From Methyloversatilis sp. (lineage in GTDB: Bacteria > Pseudomonadota > Gammaproteobacteria > Burkholderiales > Rhodocyclaceae): a stretch of DNA of 64,000 nucleotides. The stretch's first letter is position 1. Every line of letters begins with the position of its first letter. The position numbers and the translations under genes are program-made. Below, one piece after another: positions 1-11,129 of this stretch. The notes beneath the pieces were generated by a model. That model was not told the origin of the DNA, ran no database searches, and saw only the letters and a program-made list of their open reading frames with translations. The DNA lies in the NCBI GenBank assembly GCA_041639545.1, contig JBEQBZ010000005.1, forward strand, positions 98,015 to 162,014, given 5' to 3'.

Positions 1-3000
1 GTCCTGCCGGCTCCAGCGCGCGAGCAGCAGCGCCCATGCGGCGAGCAGCACCATGTACAGCGTGCAGCCGCTGGCCCGGGCAAGTGCGCGCAGACGGGTG
101 GTGAGTGCAGCGTCAAGCGCGCACTCGAAGCTGGCGCCGGCGTAATCCGGCTGTGCCGGCCGCGGCCGGTCAGTCGGCAGGTCGAGCACCGGCAGGTCGG
201 CCAGCGCGCTGCGCCAGTAGTTCAGCAGCTGTGCGCCGCGCGGTCCGGCGAGCCGGACCTGCAAGCGTGCCGCGTGGTCGGCGCAGGTAAGCCGCAGCGG
301 TGGCAGCTGTGCAGGCCTGCCGTCCCGTTCGGCGTCATGCAGCGCGGACAGGTCCCGTCGCAGCACGCTCTGCGACCAGCCGTCGGACACCAGGTGATGC
401 ACCACCCACTGCAGCACGGTGCGGCCGTCCGCGTCGGTCCATAGCGCGGCCCGTGCCAGCGGTGGCCGGTCGAGCGTGAAGGCGCGCTCTGCGTGCGCAT
501 CTGCGTCGTCCGGTGAAATCCGCTCCAGCGGGCAGTGCGCCTGGGCGTCGATGCGCTGCACCGGTTCGCCGTCGATGGCGATGAAGCCGGTGCGCAGCGA
601 CGGGTGGCGGGCGACCAGTGCGTCGAGTGCGCGCTGCAGCGCATTCGCGTCCCAGCCTTCGGGCAGACGCCAGCGCTCGACGATGTGGTACAGCCCGGGG
701 TGTTCGCTCCAGCGTTCGATGAACCAGAGCGCGGCCTGGGCCGGTGTGCATGGCGCCTGTCCGGCAGCGGAGACGACGGCGACCGGGGCCGGCGTTTCCG
801 CCGGCAGCGCCTGGCGCAGCGACTGCAGGCGTGGCGCCAGTTCGGCCGGGGTGGGGGCTTCGAACAGCGTACTCAGCGGCAGGTCGATGCTGAACAGACG
901 GCCGATGCGGCTGGCCAGCCGTACGGCCAGCAGCGAGTGGCCGCCCAGTTCGAAGAAGTGGTCGTGCGGCCCCGCCTGCGGCAGCGCCAGCACGTCCGCC
1001 CACAGTTCGCACAGCATCGCCTCGACCGGGGTGCGTGAACCGGTTGCCGCGTCCTGGCCTGCCGCGAAGTCGGGCGCCGGCAGTGCGTCGCGGTCCAGCT
1101 TGCCGTGCGGCGTGCGCGGCATCCGGTCCAGTGCCAGCAGCGCCGACGGCAGCATGTGGGCCGGCAGCATGCGGGTCAGCGACTGTCGGAGTGCAGCGGT
1201 GTCCGGCCGGCCGTCACGGCCGCGCACATAGGCCACCAGACGCGGGTCACCCGGCCGGTCCTCGCGCAGCACCACCACGGCTTCGGCGACCGACGGGTCT
1301 GTGGTCAGCGCCGCCTCGATCTCGCCCGGTTCGATGCGGAAACCGCGCAGCTTGATCTGGTGGTCTGTCCGCTGCAGGAACAGCAGGCTGCCATCGGCGC
1401 GCCGGCATACCCGGTCGCCGGTGCGGTACAGCCGTGCCCCCGGGTCGGATGAGAACGGATCGGCGACGAAGCGCTCCGCGCTCAGTTCGGGCCGACCGAG
1501 GTAGGCACGCGCCAGACCGATGCCGCCAAGGTAAAGCTCGCCGGCGATGCCGATCGGCATCGGCTGCATGCACGCATCCAGCACATGGGCGCGCATGTTG
1601 GCAATCGGGTGGCCGATCGGTATGTCGTCGTCGTCGCGGCTGCAGCTCCACCAGGTGGCGTCGATCGCCGCTTCGGTCGGCCCGTACAGATTGTGCAGCC
1701 GGGCGCCCGATCCGGCGAGGAAGCGGCGCACCAGATCCGGCGCCAGCGTCTCGCCGCCGCAGAACATCTGGCGCAGCGACGGTGCGCCGGTGAAGTCGTG
1801 TTCCTCGACCAGCGCGCGCAGCAGCGAGGGTACGGTCTGCATCACCGTGATGCGGTCACGTTCGATCTGCCGCACCAGCAGCGCCGGCTCGCGCGGAATG
1901 CCTTCGTCGGCCAGCACCAGCTGAGCACCGCACAGCAGCGGTGCCAGCAGTTCCCACACCGAGGCGTCGGCGGAGATGCCGGTCTTCAGCAGGATGCGGT
2001 CATCGGCGCTGAAGCCGAATTCCGCACGCATCCAGTGCATGTGATTGCAGATCGCCGCGTGGCTCACCATGACGCCTTTGGGGCGGCCGGTCGAGCCCGA
2101 GGTGTAGATGACGTAGGCCAGATGGTCGGGGCCGGCCAGCGGTGTCAGACCCTGTTCCGCCTCGTCGCCCGAAGTGGCTGCATCATCCACGCACAGCACG
2201 ATGCAATCGCCCGCATCCAGGTCATCCTTCAGCGCGCGCTGCGTGAGCAGCACAGGCGCCGCCGCATCGTCGCGCATGAACTGCGCGCGGGCCGCCGGAA
2301 AGTCCGGATCAATGGGCAGCCAGGCGCCGCCGGCCTTCAGCGTGGCCAGTATCGCCACCACCAGGTCGACACTGCGCTGCATGCGCACCGCGACCACGAC
2401 GTCCGGACCCACACCGAGCGCGCGCAGTCGGTGAGCGAGGCGGTTGGCGCGGCGGTTGAGTGCGTCGTAGCGGAGGGTGGAGCCGGCGTGCACGAGCGCG
2501 GTGGCGTCGGGCGAACGCGCGACCTGCTGTTCGAACAGCGACACCAGGGTGTCGGCCGGATTGCGGGGCACGGCGGTGTCGTTCCAGCGCTCGACGATGA
2601 GTGCGCGCTCGGCGTCGGTGAGCAGGGGCAGGGTGGCGAGGGTTCTGTCCTGATGGCGTGCGAATGCGCGCAGCAGGGTGGCGTAGTGGCCGGCCATGCG
2701 TTCGATGGTGCCCGGCTCGAACAGCGCGCTGGCGTACTCGAACACGCCGTCGAGTGCGCCGTCGCGTTCGCTCAGATCCAGCATCAGATCGAATTTCGCG
2801 TGGACCTGGGGTGTGCCTTCGGCCGACACCTTCAGTCCGGACAGCGCGAGCGTGTCCGCCGGCGCGTTCTGCAGCGCGAACATGACCTGGAAGAGCGGAT
2901 TGCGTGCGGGGTCGCGCACCGGTCGCAGCGCCTCGACCAGCTTCTCGAACGGCATGTCGGCGTGGTCGAAGGCGGCGAGTGAGGCGGTGCGGACGCGTTC

Positions 3001-6000
3001 GAGCAGCTGGGGCACGGACAGATCGGGCGCGATGTCGGTGCGCAGCACCAGGGTGTTGGCGAAGAAGCCGATGAGGCTGTCGAGACTGGAGTGGCTGCGC
3101 CCGGCGACCGGGGTGCCGACGACGACATCACGCTGTGCGCAGTAGCGCGCGAGCAGGAGCTGGAATGCGGCGAGCAGCACCATGTAGAGGGTGCAGCCGT
3201 GCTGTCGGGCGAGGGCGTGCAGATCGCGGGTGAGGGCGGCATCGACGGCGATCGGCAGGCGTGCGCCGCGGTGGTCGGCGCGGGCCGGACGCGGGTGATC
3301 GGTGGGCAGCGCCAGCGTGGGCAGATCGTCGAGTTCGCGCCGCCAGAAGTCGAGCAGTCGGTCGAAGGCGGGCCCGGTCAGGGCCTGTCGCTGCCAGAGC
3401 GCGAAGTCGGGGTACTGCAGGGGCAGTTCGGGCAGCGCGGAGGGGCGGTGTTGCAGGGCATCGGCGTAGAGCCGGGCCAGTTCGCTGTTGAGTACGGACA
3501 CCGACCAGCCATCGGACACGATGTGGTGGATGACGATCTGCAGCGTGTGGCGTTCGGGCGCGGAGGAGGCCGTGGCGGAGCTGAGTGCGACGCGCAGCAG
3601 CGGTGGCTGAGCGAGGTCGAAGGGTCGGTGGGCGTGTTCGTCGAGCCCTTCGTGCGGGATGAACTCGATGGGGCAGTGCGCGCTGGAGAGCAGGCGCTGG
3701 CGGGGTTCGCCGTCGCGCTCGATGAAGCCGGTGCGCAGCGCTTCGTGGCGGGCGACCAGTGCGTCGAGCGCGGACTGCAGTGCGGCGGTGTCCAGCGCGC
3801 CTTCGAGCTGCCAGCGGCTCACCACATGGTAGAGGCCGGCGCTGACGCCCCACTGCTCCATGAACCAGAGGCGGCTCTGCGTGAAGGCGCAGGGCAGTTC
3901 GTCATCGTGCGCGATGCGCCGGGGCGCCGCTGCCTGCGGCAGACCTTCTCCGCGCAGCGACTGCAGCAGCGCGTCCATCGCGCTGACGGTGGGCGCGTCG
4001 AACACGGCGCGCAGCGGCAACGGGATGCCGAACAGCTGACGGATGCGGCTGGCCAGCCGGGCGGCGAGCAGTGAGTGCCCGCCCAGTTCGAAGAAATGGT
4101 CGTCCGCGCCGACCGCAGGCAGTTCGAGCACGTCGGCCCACAGTTCGGCCAGCGCCTGCTGCCGGGGGCTGCGCGCGGCGGAGCGGTTTTCGCCGGCCAG
4201 GTCCTGGGCCGGTCTGGGCAGCGCGTCGCGGTCAATCTTGCCATTCAGCGTCAGCGGCAGCTGGGCCAGCAGCACGACGCGGGAGGGCAGCATGTAGTCG
4301 GGCAGGGTGCGCGCCAGCGTGCTGCGCAGCGCGGCCGCTTCCAGTCCGTCGCCGGCGACCCAGGCGATCAGCCGGCCGTCGGCGCCCGGCATGATCGCCG
4401 CCTGACGTACGCCGGGCAGCGCGTCGAGTGCGGCTTCGATTTCGCCCGGCTCGATGCGGAAACCGCGCAGCTTGATCTGCCTGTCCTGCCGTCCGGCGAA
4501 AGCCAGACTGCCGTCGGCACGCCAGCGCACGCGATCGCCGGTGCGGTAAAGCCGTACGCCGGGCGCCGTCGACAGGGGGTCGGGCACGAAGCGCTCCGCC
4601 GTCAGTGCCGGCCGCTTCAGATAGCCGCGGGCCAGGCCGGCGCCGCCGATGAACAGTTCGCCTTCCACCCCCACCGGCACCGGCTGGTTTTCCGCATCCA
4701 GCACCCGCACCAGTGCGTTGGCGATCGGCCGGCCTATCGGGGGCGCTTCAGCGGGCGCATCGGTCGGCAGGTCTCCGCTGCCGTTCTGCCAGGTCCACCA
4801 GGTGGTGTCGATGGCCGCTTCGGTCGGCCCGTACAGATTGTGCAGCCGGGCCTGCGTGCGGGCGGCAAAGCGCCGGCCCAGTTCCGCGTCCATCGCCTCG
4901 CCGCCGCAGAACACATGGCGCAGCGTGCCGCAGAGCGGGAAATCGGTTTCATCGACCAGCAGATGCAGCATGGCCGGCGTCACGTCCCACAGCGTGACGC
5001 CGTGAGCGCGGGTGAGCGTGATCAGGGCAGTGCCGTCGGCCCGGCGTGCGGCGTCGACCAGCACGCAGCGGCCGCCGTGCAGCAGCGGCGCGAACAGCTG
5101 GCCGACCGACACGTCGAAGCCGGGCGAAGCCTGGGTGAGCATGGCGTCGTCCGCACCCAGGCCGAAGGTGCTGCCCAGCCACAGCATGCGGTTGCACAGC
5201 GCGCCGTGCTCCAGCAGCACGCCTTTGGGTTCGCCGGTCGAGCCGGAGGTGTAGAGCACGCAGGCGGCGCTGCCGCCGTCGATGTCCGGGCGCGGGTCGC
5301 TTTCCGGTTCGCCGGCCAGTGCGGCATCGTCCGGCCGCAGCGTGAGCCGCTCACTGTCCTCATGTGTCTGCTGCGCGATGCACAGCACCGCTTCCGCGTC
5401 GTCCAGCATCCAGCGCACGCGGGCGTCAGGCAGCGCGATGTCCAGCGGCAGGCAGGTGGCGCCGGCCTTCATGATGCCGATCAGCGCGACCGCCCAGTCC
5501 GGCGAGGTGTCGAGCTGTACGCCGACCACCGCGCCCGGGCGCACGCCGAGTGCATGCAGGCGGTGGGCGAGGCGGTTGGCGCGGCGGTTGAGTGCGTCGT
5601 AGCGGAGGGTGGAGCCGGCGTGCACGAGCGCGGTGGCGTGGGGCGAACGCGCGACCTGCTGTTCGAACAGCGACACCAGGGTGTCGGCCGGATTGCGGGG
5701 CACGGCGGTGTCGTTCCAGCGCTCGACGATGAGTGCGCGCTCGGCGTCGGTGAGCAGGGGCAGGGTGGCGAGGGTTCTGTCCTGATGGCGTGCGAATGCG
5801 CGCAGCAGGGTGGCGTAGTGGCCGGCCATGCGTTCGATGGTGCCCGGCTCGAACAGCGCGCTGGCGTACTCGAACACGCCGTCGAGTGCGCCGTCGCGTT
5901 CGCTCAGATCCAGCATCAGATCGAATTTCGCGTGGACCTGGGGTGTGCCTTCGGCCGACACCTTCAGTCCGGACAGCGCGAGCGTGTCCGCCGGCGCGTT

Positions 6001-7173
6001 CTGCAGCGCGAACATGACCTGGAAGAGCGGATTGCGTGCGGGGTCGCGCACCGGTCGCAGCGCCTCGACCAGCTTCTCGAACGGCATGTCGGCGTGGTCG
6101 AAGGCGGCGAGTGAGGCGGTGCGGACGCGTTCGAGCAGCTGGGGCACGGACAGATCGGGCGCGATGTCGGTGCGCAGCACCAGGGTGTTGGCGAAGAAGC
6201 CGATGAGGCTGTCGAGACTGGAGTGGCTGCGCCCGGCGACCGGGGTGCCGACGACGACATCACGCTGTGCGCAGTAGCGCGCGAGCAGGAGCTGGAATGC
6301 GGCGAGCAGCACCATGTAGAGGGTGCAGCCGTGCTGTCGGGCGAGGGCGTGCAGATCGCGGGTGAGGGCGGCATCGACGGCGATCGGCAGGCGTGCGCCG
6401 CGGTGGTCGGCGCGGGCCGGACGCGGGTGATCGGTGGGCAGCGCCAGCGTGGGCAGATCGTCGAGTTCGCGCCGCCAGAAGTCGAGCAGTCGGTCGAAGG
6501 CGGGCCCGGTCAGGGCCTGTCGCTGCCAGAGCGCGAAGTCGGGGTACTGCAGGGGCAGTTCGGGCAGCGCGGAGGGGCGGTGTTGCAGGGCATCGGCGTA
6601 GAGCCGGGCCAGTTCGCTGTTGAGTACGGACACCGACCAGCCATCGGACACGATGTGGTGGATGACGATCTGCAGCGTGTGGCGTTCGGGCGCGGAGGAG
6701 GCCGTGGCGGAGCTGAGTGCGACGCGCAGCAGCGGTGGCTGAGCGAGGTCGAAAGGTCGGTGGGCGTGTTCGTCGAGCCCTTCGTGCGGGATGAACTCGA
6801 TGGGGCAGTGCGCGCTGGAGAGCAGGCGCTGGCGGGGTTCGCCGTCGCGCTCGATGAAGCCGGTGCGCAGGGCTTCGTGGCGGGCGACCAGTGCGTCGAG
6901 CGCGGACTGCAGTGCGGCGGTGTCCAGCGCGCCTTCGAGCTGCCAGCGGCGCACTGCGTGATGCAGCGTCCCGGTTTCCGGCCACTGCTCCAGCAGCCAC
7001 ATGCGGGTCTGGGTGTAACTGGCCGGGAACAGCTGTTCGTGCCGGCCATCGTCCAGCCTCTGGTCGGGTGTGCGGGCCTGCGCCCCAGGGCCTGCACGCA
7101 GCGTGTCCGGTCGCGTACGCGCGCGCAGTGCTTCGAGCTGGCGGGGGCTGAGCTGCCCGGAGCGGCCGGTCAT
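1..7173 (-). CDS. Non-ribosomal peptide synthetase, C-A-T-C-A-T-C..., 3' end outside the window
   Basis: Manual minus-strand translation from ATG 7173 (AGGAGG RBS at 7181-7186) is in the same frame at position 1. C-domain motifs HHIVSDG (twice) and HHLVSDG; A-domain cores YTSGSTGxPKG, NLYGPTE, LYRTGD, QIKLRGFRIEPGEIE; T-domain FFELGGHSL (twice). Missing from the ORF track because there is no stop codon in the window. Confidence 0.96.
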   Translation of the reverse strand, partial: MTGRSGQLSPRQLEALRARTRPDTLRAGPGAQARTPDQRLDDGRHEQLFPASYTQTRMWLLEQWPETGTLHHAVRRWQLEGALDTAALQSALDALVARHEALRTGFIERDGEPRQRLLSSAHCPIEFIPHEGLDEHAHRPFDLAQPPLLRVALSSATASSAPERHTLQIVIHHIVSDGWSVSVLNSELARLYADALQHRPSALPELPLQYPDFALWQRQALTGPAFDRLLDFWRRELDDLPTLALPTDHPRPARADHRGARLPIAVDAALTRDLHALARQHGCTLYMVLLAAFQLLLARYCAQRDVVVGTPVAGRSHSSLDSLIGFFANTLVLRTDIAPDLSVPQLLERVRTASLAAFDHADMPFEKLVEALRPVRDPARNPLFQVMFALQNAPADTLALSGLKVSAEGTPQVHAKFDLMLDLSERDGALDGVFEYASALFEPGTIERMAGHYATLLRAFARHQDRTLATLPLLTDAERALIVERWNDTAVPRNPADTLVSLFEQQVARSPHATALVHAGSTLRYDALNRRANRLAHRLHALGVRPGAVVGVQLDTSPDWAVALIGIMKAGATCLPLDIALPDARVRWMLDDAEAVLCIAQQTHEDSERLTLRPDDAALAGEPESDPRPDIDGGSAACVLYTSGSTGEPKGVLLEHGALCNRMLWLGSTFGLGADDAMLTQASPGFDVSVGQLFAPLLHGGRCVLVDAARRADGTALITLTRAHGVTLWDVTPAMLHLLVDETDFPLCGTLRHVFCGGEAMDAELGRRFAARTQARLHNLYGPTEAAIDTTWWTWQNGSGDLPTDAPAEAPPIGRPIANALVRVLDAENQPVPVGVEGELFIGGAGLARGYLKRPALTAERFVPDPLSTAPGVRLYRTGDRVRWRADGSLAFAGRQDRQIKLRGFRIEPGEIEAALDALPGVRQAAIMPGADGRLIAWVAGDGLEAAALRSTLARTLPDYMLPSRVVLLAQLPLTLNGKIDRDALPRPAQDLAGENRSAARSPRQQALAELWADVLELPAVGADDHFFELGGHSLLAARLASRIRQLFGIPLPLRAVFDAPTVSAMDALLQSLRGEGLPQAAAPRRIAHDDELPCAFTQSRLWFMEQWGVSAGLYHVVSRWQLEGALDTAALQSALDALVARHEALRTGFIERDGEPRQRLLSSAHCPIEFIPHEGLDEHAHRPFDLAQPPLLRVALSSATASSAPERHTLQIVIHHIVSDGWSVSVLNSELARLYADALQHRPSALPELPLQYPDFALWQRQALTGPAFDRLLDFWRRELDDLPTLALPTDHPRPARADHRGARLPIAVDAALTRDLHALARQHGCTLYMVLLAAFQLLLARYCAQRDVVVGTPVAGRSHSSLDSLIGFFANTLVLRTDIAPDLSVPQLLERVRTASLAAFDHADMPFEKLVEALRPVRDPARNPLFQVMFALQNAPADTLALSGLKVSAEGTPQVHAKFDLMLDLSERDGALDGVFEYASALFEPGTIERMAGHYATLLRAFARHQDRTLATLPLLTDAERALIVERWNDTAVPRNPADTLVSLFEQQVARSPDATALVHAGSTLRYDALNRRANRLAHRLRALGVGPDVVVAVRMQRSVDLVVAILATLKAGGAWLPIDPDFPAARAQFMRDDAAAPVLLTQRALKDDLDAGDCIVLCVDDAATSGDEAEQGLTPLAGPDHLAYVIYTSGSTGRPKGVMVSHAAICNHMHWMRAEFGFSADDRILLKTGISADASVWELLAPLLCGAQLVLADEGIPREPALLVRQIERDRITVMQTVPSLLRALVEEHDFTGAPSLRQMFCGGETLAPDLVRRFLAGSGARLHNLYGPTEAAIDATWWSCSRDDDDIPIGHPIANMRAHVLDACMQPMPIGIAGELYLGGIGLARAYLGRPELSAERFVADPFSSDPGARLYRTGDRVCRRADGSLLFLQRTDHQIKLRGFRIEPGEIEAALTTDPSVAEAVVVLREDRPGDPRLVAYVRGRDGRPDTAALRQSLTRMLPAHMLPSALLALDRMPRTPHGKLDRDALPAPDFAAGQDAATGSRTPVEAMLCELWADVLALPQAGPHDHFFELGGHSLLAVRLASRIGRLFSIDLPLSTLFEAPTPAELAPRLQSLRQALPAETPAPVAVVSAAGQAPCTPAQAALWFIERWSEHPGLYHIVERWRLPEGWDANALQRALDALVARHPSLRTGFIAIDGEPVQRIDAQAHCPLERISPDDADAHAERAFTLDRPPLARAALWTDADGRTVLQWVVHHLVSDGWSQSVLRRDLSALHDAERDGRPAQLPPLRLTCADHAARLQVRLAGPRGAQLLNYWRSALADLPVLDLPTDRPRPAQPDYAGASFECALDAALTTRLRALARASGCTLYMVLLAAWALLLARWSRQD
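2435..3818. repeat. Direct repeat, copy in module 2 (C2 domain plus N-terminus of A2), about 1384 bp
   Basis: Matches 5567-6950 at offset 3132; I found only 3 mismatches by eye. Shadow ORFs are duplicated at the same offset (2658/5790, 2696/5828, 2832/5964). Confidence 0.95.
5567..6950. repeat. Direct repeat, copy in module 1 (C1 domain plus N-terminus of A1)
   Basis: Near-identical to 2435-3818. Confidence 0.95.
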
Positions 7174-7185
7174 CGGGCTGCCTCC

Positions 7186-8997
7186 TCAGGCGGCGTTGGC
7201 GTTGCCGTCCGCGGCGCCGATCAGCGCTTCCAGTTCGGCCACCAGCGCGCCGCCCATCTGTTCGCGCAGCGCCCGCGCCAGTTCGGCGATGGTCGGGTGG
7301 CGGAACAGCAGCGTGGTCGGCAGATCGACCGGCAGCAGTTCGGTGACCCGGGCCACCACCCGCACCGCCTTCAGCGAATCGCCGCCGAGCGCGAAGAAGT
7401 TGTCGTGGATCCCGGGGGATACGCTGTCCAGCACCGCTTCCCAGGCCTGGGCCAGCACCCGCTCGACCACGTCGCGCGGCATTTCACGCGGCGAGCGGCG
7501 GGCGGACGCGAGGCGCTCGGCCATGCCGATGCGCTGCATCTTGCCGGTCGCACCCTTCGGGATTTCATCGACCAGCAGCAGTTCGCTGGGCACCTTGAAG
7601 TCGGCCAGCAAGGTGAACAGATGGGCGCGTAGCCCGGCGGCGTCGGTCAGCGCGTGCGGGCGCAGCACCACCGCCGCTGCCACGTCCTCGCCCAGCGTGG
7701 CGTGCGGCACCGCGAAGGCGAGCGCCTGCGCGACATCCGGGTGGCCGAGCAGCACCTCGTCGATTTCGCGCGGCGTGATCTTCTCGCCGCCGCGGTTGAT
7801 CATTTCCTTGAGCCGGCCGGTGATGAACAGATAGCCGTCGGCGTCGAAATAGCCTTCGTCGCCGGTGCGGAACCAGTTGCCGCTGAAAGCGCTGCGGTTC
7901 GCGTCCGGATTGGCGTGGTAGCCGTGCATCACATTGGGCCCGCGGATCGCGATCTCGCCGCGCACGCCGGCATCCAGTTCGGCGCCGGCAGGGTCGAGGA
8001 TGGTCATGTCCGGCCCGGCCGGGCGGCCAACCGAACCCGGCTTGCGTGGCTGCGGCGGCAGCGGGTTGCTGGCCATCTGGTGCGCCGCTTCGGTCATGCC
8101 ATAGGCTTCGACCACCGGGCAGCCGAAGTGCGCTTCGAGCGCGGACAGCGTGGCCGGGGCCAGCGCGGCGGAAGACGAACGGATGAAGCGCAGCGGCCGG
8201 GCCGGCCGGCGCTCGCCGGCGGCGGCCAGCACCGCCTGGTGCATGGTGGGCACCGCGGTGTACCAGGTGGCGCCGCAGGCATCCATCCAGTCGAAAAAGG
8301 CCGGCAGCTGCAGGCCGGGCGCGCACACGGTACGGCCACCGGCGGCCAGCGGGGCCAGCAGGCCGGCCACCAGCCCGTGTATGTGGAACAGCGGCATCGC
8401 GTTCAGCGCGCAGTCGTCCGCGCCCAGCGCCAGCGATGCGGCCACGTGCTTCATCGACGCGGCGAGATTGGCCTGACTGAGCGGCACCTGCTTCGGGCGC
8501 GAGGTGGTGCCCGAGGTGTGCAGCACCAGCGCGATGTCGTCCGGCGATGCGTCGTCGGCGAATGCGGCGCTGTCGTCCGCACACAGGCCGGTATCGACCT
8601 CGATCAGCGGCAGGCCGCGCGCCTGCGCCACTTCGCGGGCCAGTGCCGGGCTGTCCGGCGTCACCACGATGGCGCGCACCGCCAGATCGTCGATGTAGAA
8701 GTCGAATTCGCTGCGCGGGTATTGCGGGTTGAGCGGCGCGCAGGCGGCCGCCGACAGCGTGCCCAGCACCGCCAGTGCCATGTCCGGCCCGTTCGGCGCG
8801 ATCACCGCGACCCGGTCTTCGCGCGCAATGCCCAGTGCCCGCAGGCGGGCAGCGACCGCACGCATGCCGGCGGCCAGGCCGGCGCGCGTGACGGTGCGGC
8901 CATCGGCAGCGAGCAGCGCGGCCTGCCGGCCATCGCTGTCGGCATGGGTGCGGAGCAGGGCGGTGACCGTGGGTGCGACGGGTGAGGCGAAGGACAT
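7186..8997 (-). CDS. Oxalate--CoA ligase-like (AAE3/Pcs60-type) adenylation domain fused to a C-terminal carrier (T) domain; probable NRPS loading unit
   Basis: Motifs LHTSGTTSRPK, LFHIHGL, TWYTAVPTMHQ, LRFIRSSS, EAYGMTEAAHQMASNPLP, KPGSVG, GKMQR resemble oxalyl-CoA synthetases; C-terminal DNFFALGGDSL phosphopantetheine motif. Start placed at ATG 8997 (purine-rich RBS) rather than 9075. Stop overlaps the NRPS RBS. Confidence 0.88.
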   Translation of the reverse strand: MSFASPVAPTVTALLRTHADSDGRQAALLAADGRTVTRAGLAAGMRAVAARLRALGIAREDRVAVIAPNGPDMALAVLGTLSAAACAPLNPQYPRSEFDFYIDDLAVRAIVVTPDSPALAREVAQARGLPLIEVDTGLCADDSAAFADDASPDDIALVLHTSGTTSRPKQVPLSQANLAASMKHVAASLALGADDCALNAMPLFHIHGLVAGLLAPLAAGGRTVCAPGLQLPAFFDWMDACGATWYTAVPTMHQAVLAAAGERRPARPLRFIRSSSAALAPATLSALEAHFGCPVVEAYGMTEAAHQMASNPLPPQPRKPGSVGRPAGPDMTILDPAGAELDAGVRGEIAIRGPNVMHGYHANPDANRSAFSGNWFRTGDEGYFDADGYLFITGRLKEMINRGGEKITPREIDEVLLGHPDVAQALAFAVPHATLGEDVAAAVVLRPHALTDAAGLRAHLFTLLADFKVPSELLLVDEIPKGATGKMQRIGMAERLASARRSPREMPRDVVERVLAQAWEAVLDSVSPGIHDNFFALGGDSLKAVRVVARVTELLPVDLPTTLLFRHPTIAELARALREQMGGALVAELEALIGAADGNANAA

Positions 8998-9209
8998 TGC
9001 GGCCTTTCTTTTTCTGGAGCGCTTCAGGTGGAGAACAGCGGCCTCCCCAGGCGCGCCGGCTTCAACCTGCATCATAGGGGGGCGGCCGGTTACGCCCTGT
9101 TAAATTTGCGGCCGCCAGACGCCATCTCGCCATCCGGCGTGAGCTATTGCGCGGATAGTCGCGCCATCAGGTACCCTCGCCGGCCTGTTGTCCCGCTTTT
9201 TTCCTGTCC

Positions 9210-11129
9210 ATGAGCGCGCCTGCCCTCGTTCCGAGCTCCGCCCCGCGTGTGCTGTCCATCGTCCCGCCGATGACGCAGCTGAACACGCCCTATCCGTCCA
9301 CCGCCTATCTGACCGGCTTTCTGCGCTCGCGCGGCGTCGATGCGGTGCAGGCGGATCTGGCGCTGGAGCTGGTGCTGGATCTGCTGTCGCGCGACGGGCT
9401 GGCCACGCTGCGTGACGCCTGCGAGGCGCTGCCGCACAAGAAGCGGCCGCACGCGGCGGCCAGTTTCGCGGCGCAGTACCCGCGCTATGCGCAGACCATG
9501 GCGGCGACGCTGGCCTTCCTGCAGGGGCGCGACCCGACGCTGGCGCACCGCATCGCGTCGCGCGGCTTCCTGCCCGAAGGCCCGCGCTTCGAATCGCTGG
9601 AGGTGTACATCGACCCGGACGGCGGAGATCCGCTGGGCTGGGCCTTCGGTGCGCTGGGCGTGCAGGACCGCGCGCGCCACTTCGCGACGCTGTATCTGAA
9701 CGATGTGGCGGACGCGATCCGCGAGGCGCTGGATGCGCGTTTCGAATTCGTCCGCTACGCCGAATCGCTGGCGCAGAGCCAGCCCAGCTTCGATCCGCTG
9801 GCGCAGGCGCTGGCCGCGCCGCCGACCGCGGTCGACCGCGCGCTCGACCGCCTGACGCGCGCCACGCTGGAACGCCATCGGCCGCAGGTCGTGCTGCTGT
9901 CGGTGCCCTTTCCCGGCTCGGTGTACGCCGCCTTCCGCATCGCGCAGACGGTGAAGGCGGTCGACCCCGCCATCGTGACCGTGCTCGGCGGCGGTTACGC
10001 CAACACCGAACTGCGCGAACTGGCCGAGCCGCGGGTGTTCGACTTTTTCGACTACGTGACGCTGGACGCCGGCGAGCGGCCGTTGCTGGCGCTGCTCGAC
10101 CACCTCGCCGGTGGCCGCTCCCGACAGCGGCTGGTGCGCACCTTCCTGCGCGAGGAGGGTGCAGTGAAGTACGTGAACTTCGTCGAGCCGGACATTCCGT
10201 TCGAGGAAGTCGGCACGCCGACCTGGGACGGCCTGCCGCTGGACCGCTACCTGTCGCTGTTGGACATGCTCAACCCGATGCACCGGCTGTGGTCGGACGG
10301 GCGCTGGAACAAGCTCACGGTGGCGCACGGCTGCTACTGGAAGAAGTGCAGCTTCTGCGACGTGAGCCTGGACTACATTTCGCGCTATGACGCCGCCAGC
10401 GCCACCGTGCTGGCCGACCGCATCGAAGCCATCGTCGCCGAAACCGGGCAGACCGGCTTCCACTTCGTCGACGAGGCCGCACCGCCGAAATCGCTGCGCG
10501 CGCTGGCGACCGAACTGCGCCGGCGTGACCTCAGCATTTCATGGTGGGGAAACATCCGCTTCGAAAAGTCCTTCACGCCGGAACTGTGCGCGGAACTGGC
10601 CGACAGCGGCTGCATCGCCATGTCCGGCGGGCTGGAGGTGGCGAGCGACCGGCTGCTCAAGCTGATGAAGAAGGGCGTGTCGGTGGAGCAGGTGGCGCGG
10701 GTCACCCGCGGCTTCGCCGACGCCGGCATTCTGGTGCACGCCTACCTGATGTACGGCTTCCCGACACAGACCGTGCAGGACACGGTCGACGCGCTGGAAT
10801 ACGTACGCCAGCTGTTCGAGCATGGCTGCATACAGAGCGGTTTCTTCCACCGCTTCGCCTGCACCGTGCATTCGCCGGTCGGGCTGAATCCGGAGGAATA
10901 CGGCGTCACGCTGCAGCCGCTGCCGCCGGTTACCTTCGCGAAGAACGACGTCGGCTTCACCGACCCGACCGGTACCGACCACGACGCGATGGGCGTGGCG
11001 CTGAACAAGGCGCTGTACAACTACATGCACGGCATCGGTCTGGACGAGGACGTGCGCAGCTGGTTCGGCGGCCGCGTGCCGAAGACGCGCGTGCCGCACC
11101 ACTTCATCGAGCGCGCACTGCACGGCTGA
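9210..11129 (+). CDS. B12-binding-domain radical SAM protein
   Basis: CYWKKCSFC (CX3CX2C) motif; N-terminal PYPSTAYL and VLGGGY cobalamin-binding-like region; FVDEA and GLEVAS radical SAM core. Confidence 0.88.
   Translation: MSAPALVPSSAPRVLSIVPPMTQLNTPYPSTAYLTGFLRSRGVDAVQADLALELVLDLLSRDGLATLRDACEALPHKKRPHAAASFAAQYPRYAQTMAATLAFLQGRDPTLAHRIASRGFLPEGPRFESLEVYIDPDGGDPLGWAFGALGVQDRARHFATLYLNDVADAIREALDARFEFVRYAESLAQSQPSFDPLAQALAAPPTAVDRALDRLTRATLERHRPQVVLLSVPFPGSVYAAFRIAQTVKAVDPAIVTVLGGGYANTELRELAEPRVFDFFDYVTLDAGERPLLALLDHLAGGRSRQRLVRTFLREEGAVKYVNFVEPDIPFEEVGTPTWDGLPLDRYLSLLDMLNPMHRLWSDGRWNKLTVAHGCYWKKCSFCDVSLDYISRYDAASATVLADRIEAIVAETGQTGFHFVDEAAPPKSLRALATELRRRDLSISWWGNIRFEKSFTPELCAELADSGCIAMSGGLEVASDRLLKLMKKGVSVEQVARVTRGFADAGILVHAYLMYGFPTQTVQDTVDALEYVRQLFEHGCIQSGFFHRFACTVHSPVGLNPEEYGVTLQPLPPVTFAKNDVGFTDPTGTDHDAMGVALNKALYNYMHGIGLDEDVRSWFGGRVPKTRVPHHFIERALHG

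Follow-up and report, generated by a model that had tools for sequence, protein, structure and literature searches.

What an adenylating enzyme of the oxalyl-CoA synthetase (OCS) family does when it ends in a carrier domain and is encoded directly upstream of a nonribosomal peptide synthetase (NRPS) is the question raised by a locus of Methyloversatilis sp. (genome G000, 87.8% complete). The window, meaning the whole stretch of DNA analysed, covers 64,000 nucleotides (G000:C5:98015-162014). The cluster in question lies on the minus strand and comprises an adenylation-carrier protein (A-T; 7186-8997), the NRPS (7173 down to C5:94955) and a phosphopantetheinyl transferase (PPTase; C5:94267-94965). 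Judged by their sequences, the A-T protein and the NRPS probably make an N-oxalyl tripeptide, with oxalate as the presumed substrate. A set of 21 genomes of the genus (labelled G) and homologue loci (labelled L) served for comparison. The features of the cluster are listed below, with A, T, C and TE denoting adenylation, carrier, condensation and thioesterase domains.

7186..8997, minus strand: A-T gene, 603 aa (P0002), proposed loading module, from Pfam, PDB and fold comparison
7498..8973, minus strand: A domain of the AAE3/OCS type, approximately residues 9-500, from alignment and conservation
7267..7458, minus strand: carrier (PP-binding) domain, residues 514-577, with phosphopantetheine site GGDS(541)L, from Pfam
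7204..7251, minus strand: C-terminal acidic helix, residues 583-598, a helix in the model with similar tails in relatives; putative docking element
7174..7188, minus strand: stop codon of A-T overlapping the GAGGAGG ribosome-binding site of the NRPS, 12-nt gap, from the sequence
1..7173, minus strand: NRPS, 3410 aa, C-A-T-C-A-T-C-A-T-TE, running beyond the window to C5:94955, from domain calls
7114..7155, minus strand: N-terminal amphipathic helix of the NRPS, residues 7-20, resembling the N-terminal extension of a thiamine enzyme in relatives; putative docking helix
5728..7041, minus strand: C1, LCL-like condensation domain, residues 45-482, HHxxxDG intact
4219..5667, minus strand: A1, code DVGDFGLIDK read from the alignment, probably for a basic amino acid
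3949..4170, minus strand: T1
2596..3903, minus strand: C2, a near-copy of C1 (95.9% at the amino acid level)
1081..2535, minus strand: A2, code DAWQFGLIDK, a reported Gln code (PMC8313283)
814..1032, minus strand: T2
1..762, minus strand: start of C3; A3 (DAFWLGGTFK), T3 and TE (GFSSGG) lie beyond the window edge
C5:94267-94965, minus strand, beyond the window: PPTase of the Sfp/HetI type, 232 aa, its start overlapping the NRPS stop by 11 nt, from domain calls

In the proposed mechanism, the A-T protein would adenylate oxalate and move the oxalyl group onto its own phosphopantetheinylated carrier, which the PPTase of the cluster presumably primes. Via the short terminal helices, the oxalyl group would be passed to C1 of the adjacent NRPS, where the α-amine, not a side-chain amine, would be acylated. 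A tripeptide of the form oxalyl-(probably basic residue)-Gln-Val would then be released by the TE domain, presumably by hydrolysis. Oxalate could be supplied by uptake, involving tripartite-transporter-like genes between oxs and panE2 (a family assignment made from the gene pattern, with no library match), or by the oxs/panE2 route.

The motifs that a preliminary description of this DNA had attributed to the 7186-8997 product (HTSGTTSRPK, FHIHG, WYTAVPTMHQ, FIRSSS, EAAHQMASNPLP and GGDSL) were all present in its open reading frame of 603 aa. Pfam placed AMP-binding at residues 17-361, AMP-binding_C at 411-486 and PP-binding at 514-577, and the carrier serine, S541, was invariant in 105/105 aligned homologues. 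GCDS stands in place of the carrier motif GGDS in L024, L025, L026 and L013, from one clade of the genus. With an ATG further upstream, at 9075, the protein would reach 629 aa; a purine-rich site precedes the start at 8997, and close homologues mostly have 602-618 aa.

Comparison with 177,635 PDB sequences revealed AtAAE3 (403 bits, E = 2e-119), Lathyrus sativus OCS (LsOCS; 402 bits) and Pcs60 (354 bits) as the top matches of the A-T protein, with MatB at 206 bits. The core of the A domain alone gave the same ranking (373, 370 and 320 bits, respectively, and 181 bits for MatB). With an AF2 model built from 105 sequences (pLDDT 92.8), and with Foldseek used for ranking, structures of AtAAE3, LsOCS and Pcs60 filled places 1-8 (AtAAE3: TM-score 0.90, 44% identity). 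In NCBIfam, no model exceeded its cut-off for the A-T protein, the best being 'FadD7 family' with 410 of the 650 bits required. By both sequence and fold, the A domain is a member of the OCS family.

Eight pocket residues of AtAAE3 are described in PMC8905533, with S289, H319 and K500 as the oxalate contacts; a KM for oxalate of 9 µM is given for the Methylorubrum extorquens enzyme OXS in PMC7154664. In a HMMER alignment, all three contacts were found to be kept in the A-T protein (S276, H306 and K486). The full map is H205=H214, I206=V215, H207=H216, S275=C288, S276=S289, G300=A313, M301=M314, H306=H319 and K486=K500. Five of the eight pocket residues are identical to AtAAE3; those that differ (V215I, C288S, A313G) follow the bacterial norm, as evident from the 59 stand-alone bacterial homologues, where I206 is found in 59/59, S275 in 59/59 and G300 in 57/59. 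This count omits L001-L015, L027 and L028, which are duplicates, and one of the two fused genes of L047, which was overwritten. In the control MatB, an equivalent of H319 is absent and a Ser is present at position 289, which makes the His the discriminating residue of the pocket.

The A-T protein departs from the stand-alone enzymes at four basic positions (94, 259, 434 and 471), which are K/R in 55-59 of those 59 proteins and P, A, T and S in the window copy. We take these residues to contact the nucleotide part of CoA, as in 4-chlorobenzoate ligase. Their loss hints at weaker CoA binding and is what would be expected if CoA were no longer bound.

A second, carrier-less oxs gene is encoded in G000 at C5 ~200985-202511; its product is 52% identical to the fused copy. 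It is followed by three transporter-like genes and then by a gene passing the cut-off of the PanE subfamily (panE2, four genes from oxs). Since the genome thus has a separate oxs by panE2, the fused copy appears not to be the catabolic enzyme. A panE2-like gene was found in 48/59 stand-alone loci vs. 0/30 carrier-fused loci, counts in which kin are not independent and loci differ in length. The oxs-to-panE2 stretch of G000 (L016:8986-14812, equal to G000:C5 ~200985-206811), with neither oxc nor frc above the cut-off, corresponds to an oxalate-to-glyoxylate module. A stand-alone oxs homologue was seen in most genomes of the genus; G012 and G013 showed only the fused copy. No oxc gene exceeded the cut-off in any genus genome (0/21), nor did any frc gene in G000.

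A tree of 56 rows (20 of the 59 stand-alone, 26 of the 31 fused and 10 multimodular sequences, with the plant and yeast proteins left outside) placed the six included A-T proteins of the genus in one clade (SH-aLRT 98) and the stand-alone oxs of G000 in another, together with Methylobacterium homologues (SH-aLRT 98). An origin of the A-T protein as a recent duplicate of the genome's own oxs is ruled out by the 52% identity and the separate clades. A single origin of all fused forms is not supported by the tree, which shows 2 changes on a poorly supported backbone.

The same didomain, termed O-T here with O for an OCS-type A domain, recurs at the start of NRPS chains in other bacteria. Among 7994 scored longer homologues, 1934 matched at E ≤ 1e-100, and the best 120 of these were analysed. 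All were multidomain proteins; the O domain was N-terminal in 116, and 109 began with the order O-T-C, which supports a loading role of the A-T protein. The equivalent of H319 was kept in 115 of them and that of S289 in 118. HHxxxDG was present in 92/114 of the C domains that follow O-T, and the codes of the subsequent A domains were very diverse. At genome level, the best 80 of 587 loci were analysed, and 22 of these were carrier-fused, spread over Pseudomonadota, Acidobacteriota, Gemmatimonadota, Nitrospirota, Verrucomicrobiota, Planctomycetota and Chloroflexota. A C domain was encoded in the same chain or 1-2 genes downstream in 15 of the 22; the others comprised four O-T-TE proteins, one locus among other NRPS genes, one with a thiamine enzyme soon followed by the contig end and one in a sugar-modification locus.

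Side observations on this didomain concern its surroundings. In L042, a gene of the PEP-mutase/ICL family, which includes oxaloacetate hydrolase, lies between O-T and the NRPS. Oxaloacetate hydrolase is treated as an oxalate-making enzyme in PMC9485241. O-T-TE and O-T proteins without an NRPS were seen in L033, L047, L070, L106 and L064; the one in L064 lies among DegT, glycosyltransferase-like and hexapeptide-transferase genes, a context that suggests oxalylation of sugars or surfaces.

Turning to the NRPS, its junction with the A-T gene reads TGA-GGAGG-CAGCCCG-ATG, with the NRPS start at 7173, 12 nt on, so that the stop codon does overlap the ribosome-binding site of an NRPS whose first domain is C (residues 45-482, HHIVSDG), as initially described. 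The synthetase extends 3 kb beyond the left edge of the window and ends in a TE domain. Its C-A-T modules are complete, HHxxxDG and the carrier serines are in place, a TE (GxSxG) closes the chain, and a PPTase is at hand. It is the sole NRPS found in G000, and its three C domains are the only ones detected in this incomplete assembly.

In the PDB comparison, Txo2, Txo1 and tyrocidine synthetase 3 matched C1 at 325-276 bits, and CDA-C1 at 52 bits. By the subtypes usually assigned to these entries, C1 is LCL-like, of the elongation type, and not a starter C domain of the lipo-initiation kind. An LCL-like C1 fits a carrier-bound donor better than an acyl-CoA, which strengthens the carrier-loading model.

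Regarding the amino acids, DAWQFGLIDK of A2 is quoted as a Gln code in PMC8313283, and DAFWLGGTFK of A3 is listed as a Val code in a table of PMC9113097. For the A1 code DVGDFGLIDK (D at position 278 when the unprocessed alignment is counted from its conserved Pro and W), the literature search yielded neither a match nor papers containing the Arg/Lys codes used for comparison, and the PDB matches gave no assignment. Its pocket is wider and has an acidic floor, which would suit Lys, Arg, Orn or His.

The C1 and C2 regions form a direct DNA repeat (5523-6954 vs. 2391-3822) with 15 mismatches in 1432 bp. An assembly artefact is ruled out for the repeat architecture, as the same three modules are found in G003 and G008; there, C1 and C2 are 88-90% identical at the amino acid level, and the higher identity in G000 could reflect recent gene conversion or, in part, assembly.

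This repeat bears on the first of the alternatives, namely that oxalate is loaded but the product is not a simple linear Nα-oxalyl tripeptide. Either the oxalyl group would end up on a side-chain amine of Lys, Orn or Dab, as in the plant metabolite ODAP, or C2 would re-prime module 2, giving oxalyl-Gln-Val or a mixture. The acidic pocket floor of A1 is compatible with this alternative. So are the near-identity of C1 and C2 in G000 (95.9%) and of the two C domains in G012 (99.6%) and G019 (98.9%), and the architecture C-A-T-A-T-C-A-T-TE of six relatives: one A-T pair lacks a C domain of its own and the X/Gln order is swapped in five, suggesting alternative acceptors. In detail, the Gln module precedes X in G001, G002, G007, G017 and G020, where the second A-T has no C domain; G012 has X then Gln, also without one C domain; and G019 has X-Val only. 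The NRPS genes of L019-L024 read C-A-T-A-T-C-A-T-TE, with X and Gln modules swapped between lineages. In G000, G003 and G008, however, all three modules are complete with intact motifs; colinear synthesis is the simplest reading of these, and a side-chain or re-primed product is considered unlikely. Since relatives shuffle their modules, the exact product is less certain than the cap.

Some relatives carry an additional gene, which raises the question of whether the cap stays oxalyl. In seven of the 12 genus genomes with the cassette, a gene for a thiamine enzyme resembling OXC and HACL (560-580 aa) lies between A-T and NRPS. An example is L019:14399-16090 (minus strand), and orthologues directly after a carrier-fused O are found in L020-L023, L025, L026, L034, L073 and L085. 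The best matches of the enzyme are HACL/HACS/OXC structures (198-248 bits) and oxc models, at scores below the oxc cut-offs. The Glu of the HACL sequence 'RNEQ', presumably the cofactor-activating residue, is aligned with Gln in 9/9 and 42/42 homologues. Most of the enzymes carry an N-terminal amphipathic helix that resembles, by eye, the N-terminus of the window NRPS (strict pattern in 11/42), and the acidic-helix pattern was found in 30/111 A-T tails. For the G017 thiamine enzyme with the carrier and tail, complex prediction gave a score of 0.38 against 0.00 for the best of three controls, with 93% or more of the contacts shared between runs and a partner pLDDT of 78 or higher; the mark used is reached by 116/157 solved complexes and 2/215 mismatched pairs, and at scores of 0.60 or below by only 18 solved complexes and both mismatches. 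The model thus weakly suggests binding of the thiamine enzyme to the carrier tail.

OXC is reported to yield formyl-CoA and, with aldehydes, 2-hydroxyacyl-CoAs (PMC7154664, PMC8411744), and the M. extorquens enzyme makes glycolyl-CoA from formaldehyde (PMC7154664). In many relatives, the thiamine enzyme probably alters the cap; the presence of an oxalyl-thioester-type enzyme dedicated to the cassette is also indirect support for oxalate as the loaded acid.

The thiamine enzyme was absent from all nine cassette-free genomes and was not found in G000, G003, G008, G012 and G013; in G013, the NRPS directly follows A-T, and G003, G008 and G012 are 99-100% complete. A search of G000 returned no close relative (best match 28%). 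The cap is therefore likely to stay oxalyl in G000. A cap other than oxalyl would arise if the A domain loaded a glyoxylate-like analogue or if an enzyme acting in trans gave a formyl, glyoxyl or glycolyl cap. The thiamine gene directly after A-T in the seven genomes, the OXC chemistry together with the weak glyoxylate use by LsOCS, and PanE2, which interconverts oxalyl-CoA and glyoxylate (PMC9485241) and is encoded in G000, would all fit. Yet the enzyme is missing from the genomes named above and is adjacent in only 4/22 fused loci, and the A-domain pocket equals that of the stand-alone enzymes of oxs-panE2 loci, so that such a cap appears quite unlikely in G000.

In the tree, cassettes bearing the thiamine enzyme stand on both sides of enzyme-free ones, and the divergence of the enzyme (62-64%) resembles that of A-T (63-66%), which suggests that the enzyme has been lost. 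Together with the nine of 21 genus genomes that lack the cassette altogether, this would be compatible with a decaying remnant that makes little or nothing in the absence of its thiamine enzyme. Such decay is improbable, as the three reading frames are intact with their catalytic motifs in G000, G003 and G008, whose A-T proteins are 96-99% identical, and the enzyme-free arrangement recurs in G012, G013 and most loci outside the genus.

The view of A-T as an oxalyl-CoA synthetase of ordinary catabolism, its carrier incidental and without relation to the NRPS, can be dismissed as most improbable. In its favour, A-T is a true OCS member, and carrier-less O domains near a C-A-T-TE NRPS in L060 and L080 show that CoA routes may exist. 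In these two Rhizomicrobium genomes (L060:1928-8640 and L080:8627-16608), the carrier-less O lies ~1.1 kb upstream of the NRPS, possibly as an oxalyl-CoA-fed version. Against this view, catabolism is covered by the separate oxs-panE2 locus, the serine of the carrier does not vary, translation of the gene is coupled to that of the NRPS, and O-T-C fusions are numerous.

Priming with oxalate and formation of an N-oxalyl tripeptide thus remains the preferred explanation, against which several observations weigh. S289 alone is no discriminator, as MatB shares the Ser. LsOCS prefers oxalate 61-fold over glyoxylate and ~10,000-fold over malonate (PMC8905533), and since glyoxylate is also activated, albeit 61-fold less efficiently, the pocket residues leave a close analogue possible. 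Among the 120 multimodular fusions, the four basic positions are partly kept (56-83), and their loss cannot serve as a strict marker. No lyase of the ICL/PEP-mutase family is encoded in the cluster, the sole PF13714 match in G000 being a 470-aa frame elsewhere, and no exporter gene is found in the cluster. With G000 only 87.8% complete, a gene acting in trans could be missing. Lastly, a mixture or a shorter peptide may be the product, given that C2 copies C1 and that module order and C content vary. Nonetheless, the sequence, the fold, the tree and the gene context all lend good support to the proposal of the preliminary description: oxalate would be adenylated and kept on the fused carrier until the first C domain condenses it, with the identity of the acid as the probable rather than settled part.

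The proposed mechanism works like FAAL-ACP priming, from which it differs in A-domain family and C subtype, and it uses an OCS domain outside its catabolic setting. In FAAL:acyl carrier protein (ACP):starter-C systems (DptE/DptF/DptA; fused FAAL-ACP LptEF), an adenylated acid passes to a carrier with no intermediate bound to CoA and is then used for condensation by the first C domain (PMC9113097), and the adenylating enzyme and carrier are likewise placed directly upstream of a C-first NRPS. The window protein instead has an OCS-family A domain colinear with AAE3, a small polar pocket and a C2 diacid as its proposed substrate, no FAAL is among its 60 best PDB matches, and C1 is LCL-like rather than a specialised starter (C-III). 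With the OCS enzymes (AtAAE3, LsOCS, Pcs60, M. extorquens OXS), it shares the ANL fold, the P-loop SGTTSRPK and the oxalate pocket S289/H319/K500; it differs in its carrier fusion, its NRPS operon, the lack of a nearby panE2 and the four lost basic residues, and its proposed acceptor is the phosphopantetheine arm, not CoA. The formation of β-ODAP (dencichine) in grass pea is similar in that an OCS-family enzyme supplies oxalyl for the N-oxalylation of an amino acid (PMC8905533, PMC9485241), but that route relies on free oxalyl-CoA and a BAHD transferase acting on a free amino acid, and involves neither a carrier nor an NRPS. Initiation by EntE/EntB, DhbE, PchD and A-T units of the GrsA/TycA type also places a non-amino-acid or first unit on a carrier that precedes a C-first module; the enzymes belong to other ANL subfamilies with other substrates (130-160 bits vs. 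~400 for OCS). The inserted gene of relatives has its best matches in the OXC/HACL family and differs from it by the Glu-to-Gln exchange, by scores below the oxc cut-offs and, in most cases, by the extra N-terminal helix.

No oxalyl-carrier-primed NRPS was found in the literature, in a search that left most subscription journals and MIBiG outside. In the available text of the lactacystin paper PMC11730586, oxalyl appears in a reference only; that of a bioRxiv preprint on Methyloversatilis and cyanochelin (10.64898/2026.07.27.740964) contains nothing on the cluster, and that of PMC10681181 only counts NRPS clusters in a Methyloversatilis bin.

A metallophore, as first suggested for the product, is not borne out, as no TonB receptor, exporter or chelator-tailoring gene is located in or next to the cluster. 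The best upstream match to a 19-nt Fur consensus had 9 of 19 positions in the window and 8-11 in eight relatives, which is a weak test since the genome-wide best matches reached only 14 of 19. A role as an enzyme inhibitor or signal is no less plausible than one as a chelator, and the genomic surroundings give no hint of metal uptake. As N-oxalyl amino acids can act as mimics of 2-oxoglutarate, the products may be bioactive.

The cluster is flanked on one side by a divergent B12 radical SAM gene and on the other by convergent PEP-CTERM and metallophosphatase genes, with DUF1501/DUF1800 among the neighbours. The B12-binding radical SAM gene (window 9210-11129, plus strand) was also seen in 5/5 cassette-free genomes tested, at 82-91% identity, and since it is kept there, it is probably outside the pathway. 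In the cassette-free genomes G011, G014 and G018, it lies ~0.8-0.9 kb from an upstream gene that we take to be pqiB-like from its sequence; given this proximity, the site is empty in these three. In some relatives only, the cassette adjoins a gene for a purple-acid-phosphatase-like protein of 998 aa that contains repeats (L001:12639-16234, plus strand), and next to it comes a PEP-CTERM protein. Large separate NRPS clusters were seen at G004:C1:381000-453000 (13 C domains in G004) and in G007:C98 (most of the 16 of G007).

Spread by plasmids was rejected, as 72,556 plasmid records gave 2 partial matches of ~51%, neither covering the carrier. A promoter scan returned 0 promoter-like sites and a terminator scan 6 terminator-like sites, where 4.4 were expected. 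Contigs over the cassette, including the A-T/NRPS junction, were found in four metatranscriptome runs from two studies; flanking genes were covered too, and the libraries contain contigs of 26-78 kb, so that the coverage may stem from DNA carry-over and is not taken as a sign of transcription.

If the proposal is true, oxalate is to be counted among the starter units of NRPSs, and a family of N-oxalyl peptides is to be expected, whose modules databases would hide under 'AMP-binding protein' or 'amino acid adenylation domain protein'. For NRPS engineering, a loading didomain specific for oxalate and able to feed an ordinary LCL domain would be of use as a part. The cluster is readily testable, with a minimal set of three genes, the sole NRPS found in its genome and a copy in the named strain M. 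universalis EHg5 (L027), whose A-T protein is 99% identical to that of the window; congeners with and without the thiamine enzyme at the same locus provide a natural experiment on the cap. More tentatively, we propose that a carrier-fused OCS branch primes NRPSs with oxalate in at least seven bacterial phyla, and that the optional Glu-to-Gln thiamine enzyme docks on the same carrier as a cap switch, giving formyl or 2-hydroxyacyl caps (in a methylotroph, glycolyl from formaldehyde) without a formyltransferase domain. Methyloversatilis has both versions at one chromosomal site, so that some of its species might then produce N-oxalyl peptides and others congeners with a C1 or hydroxyacyl cap.

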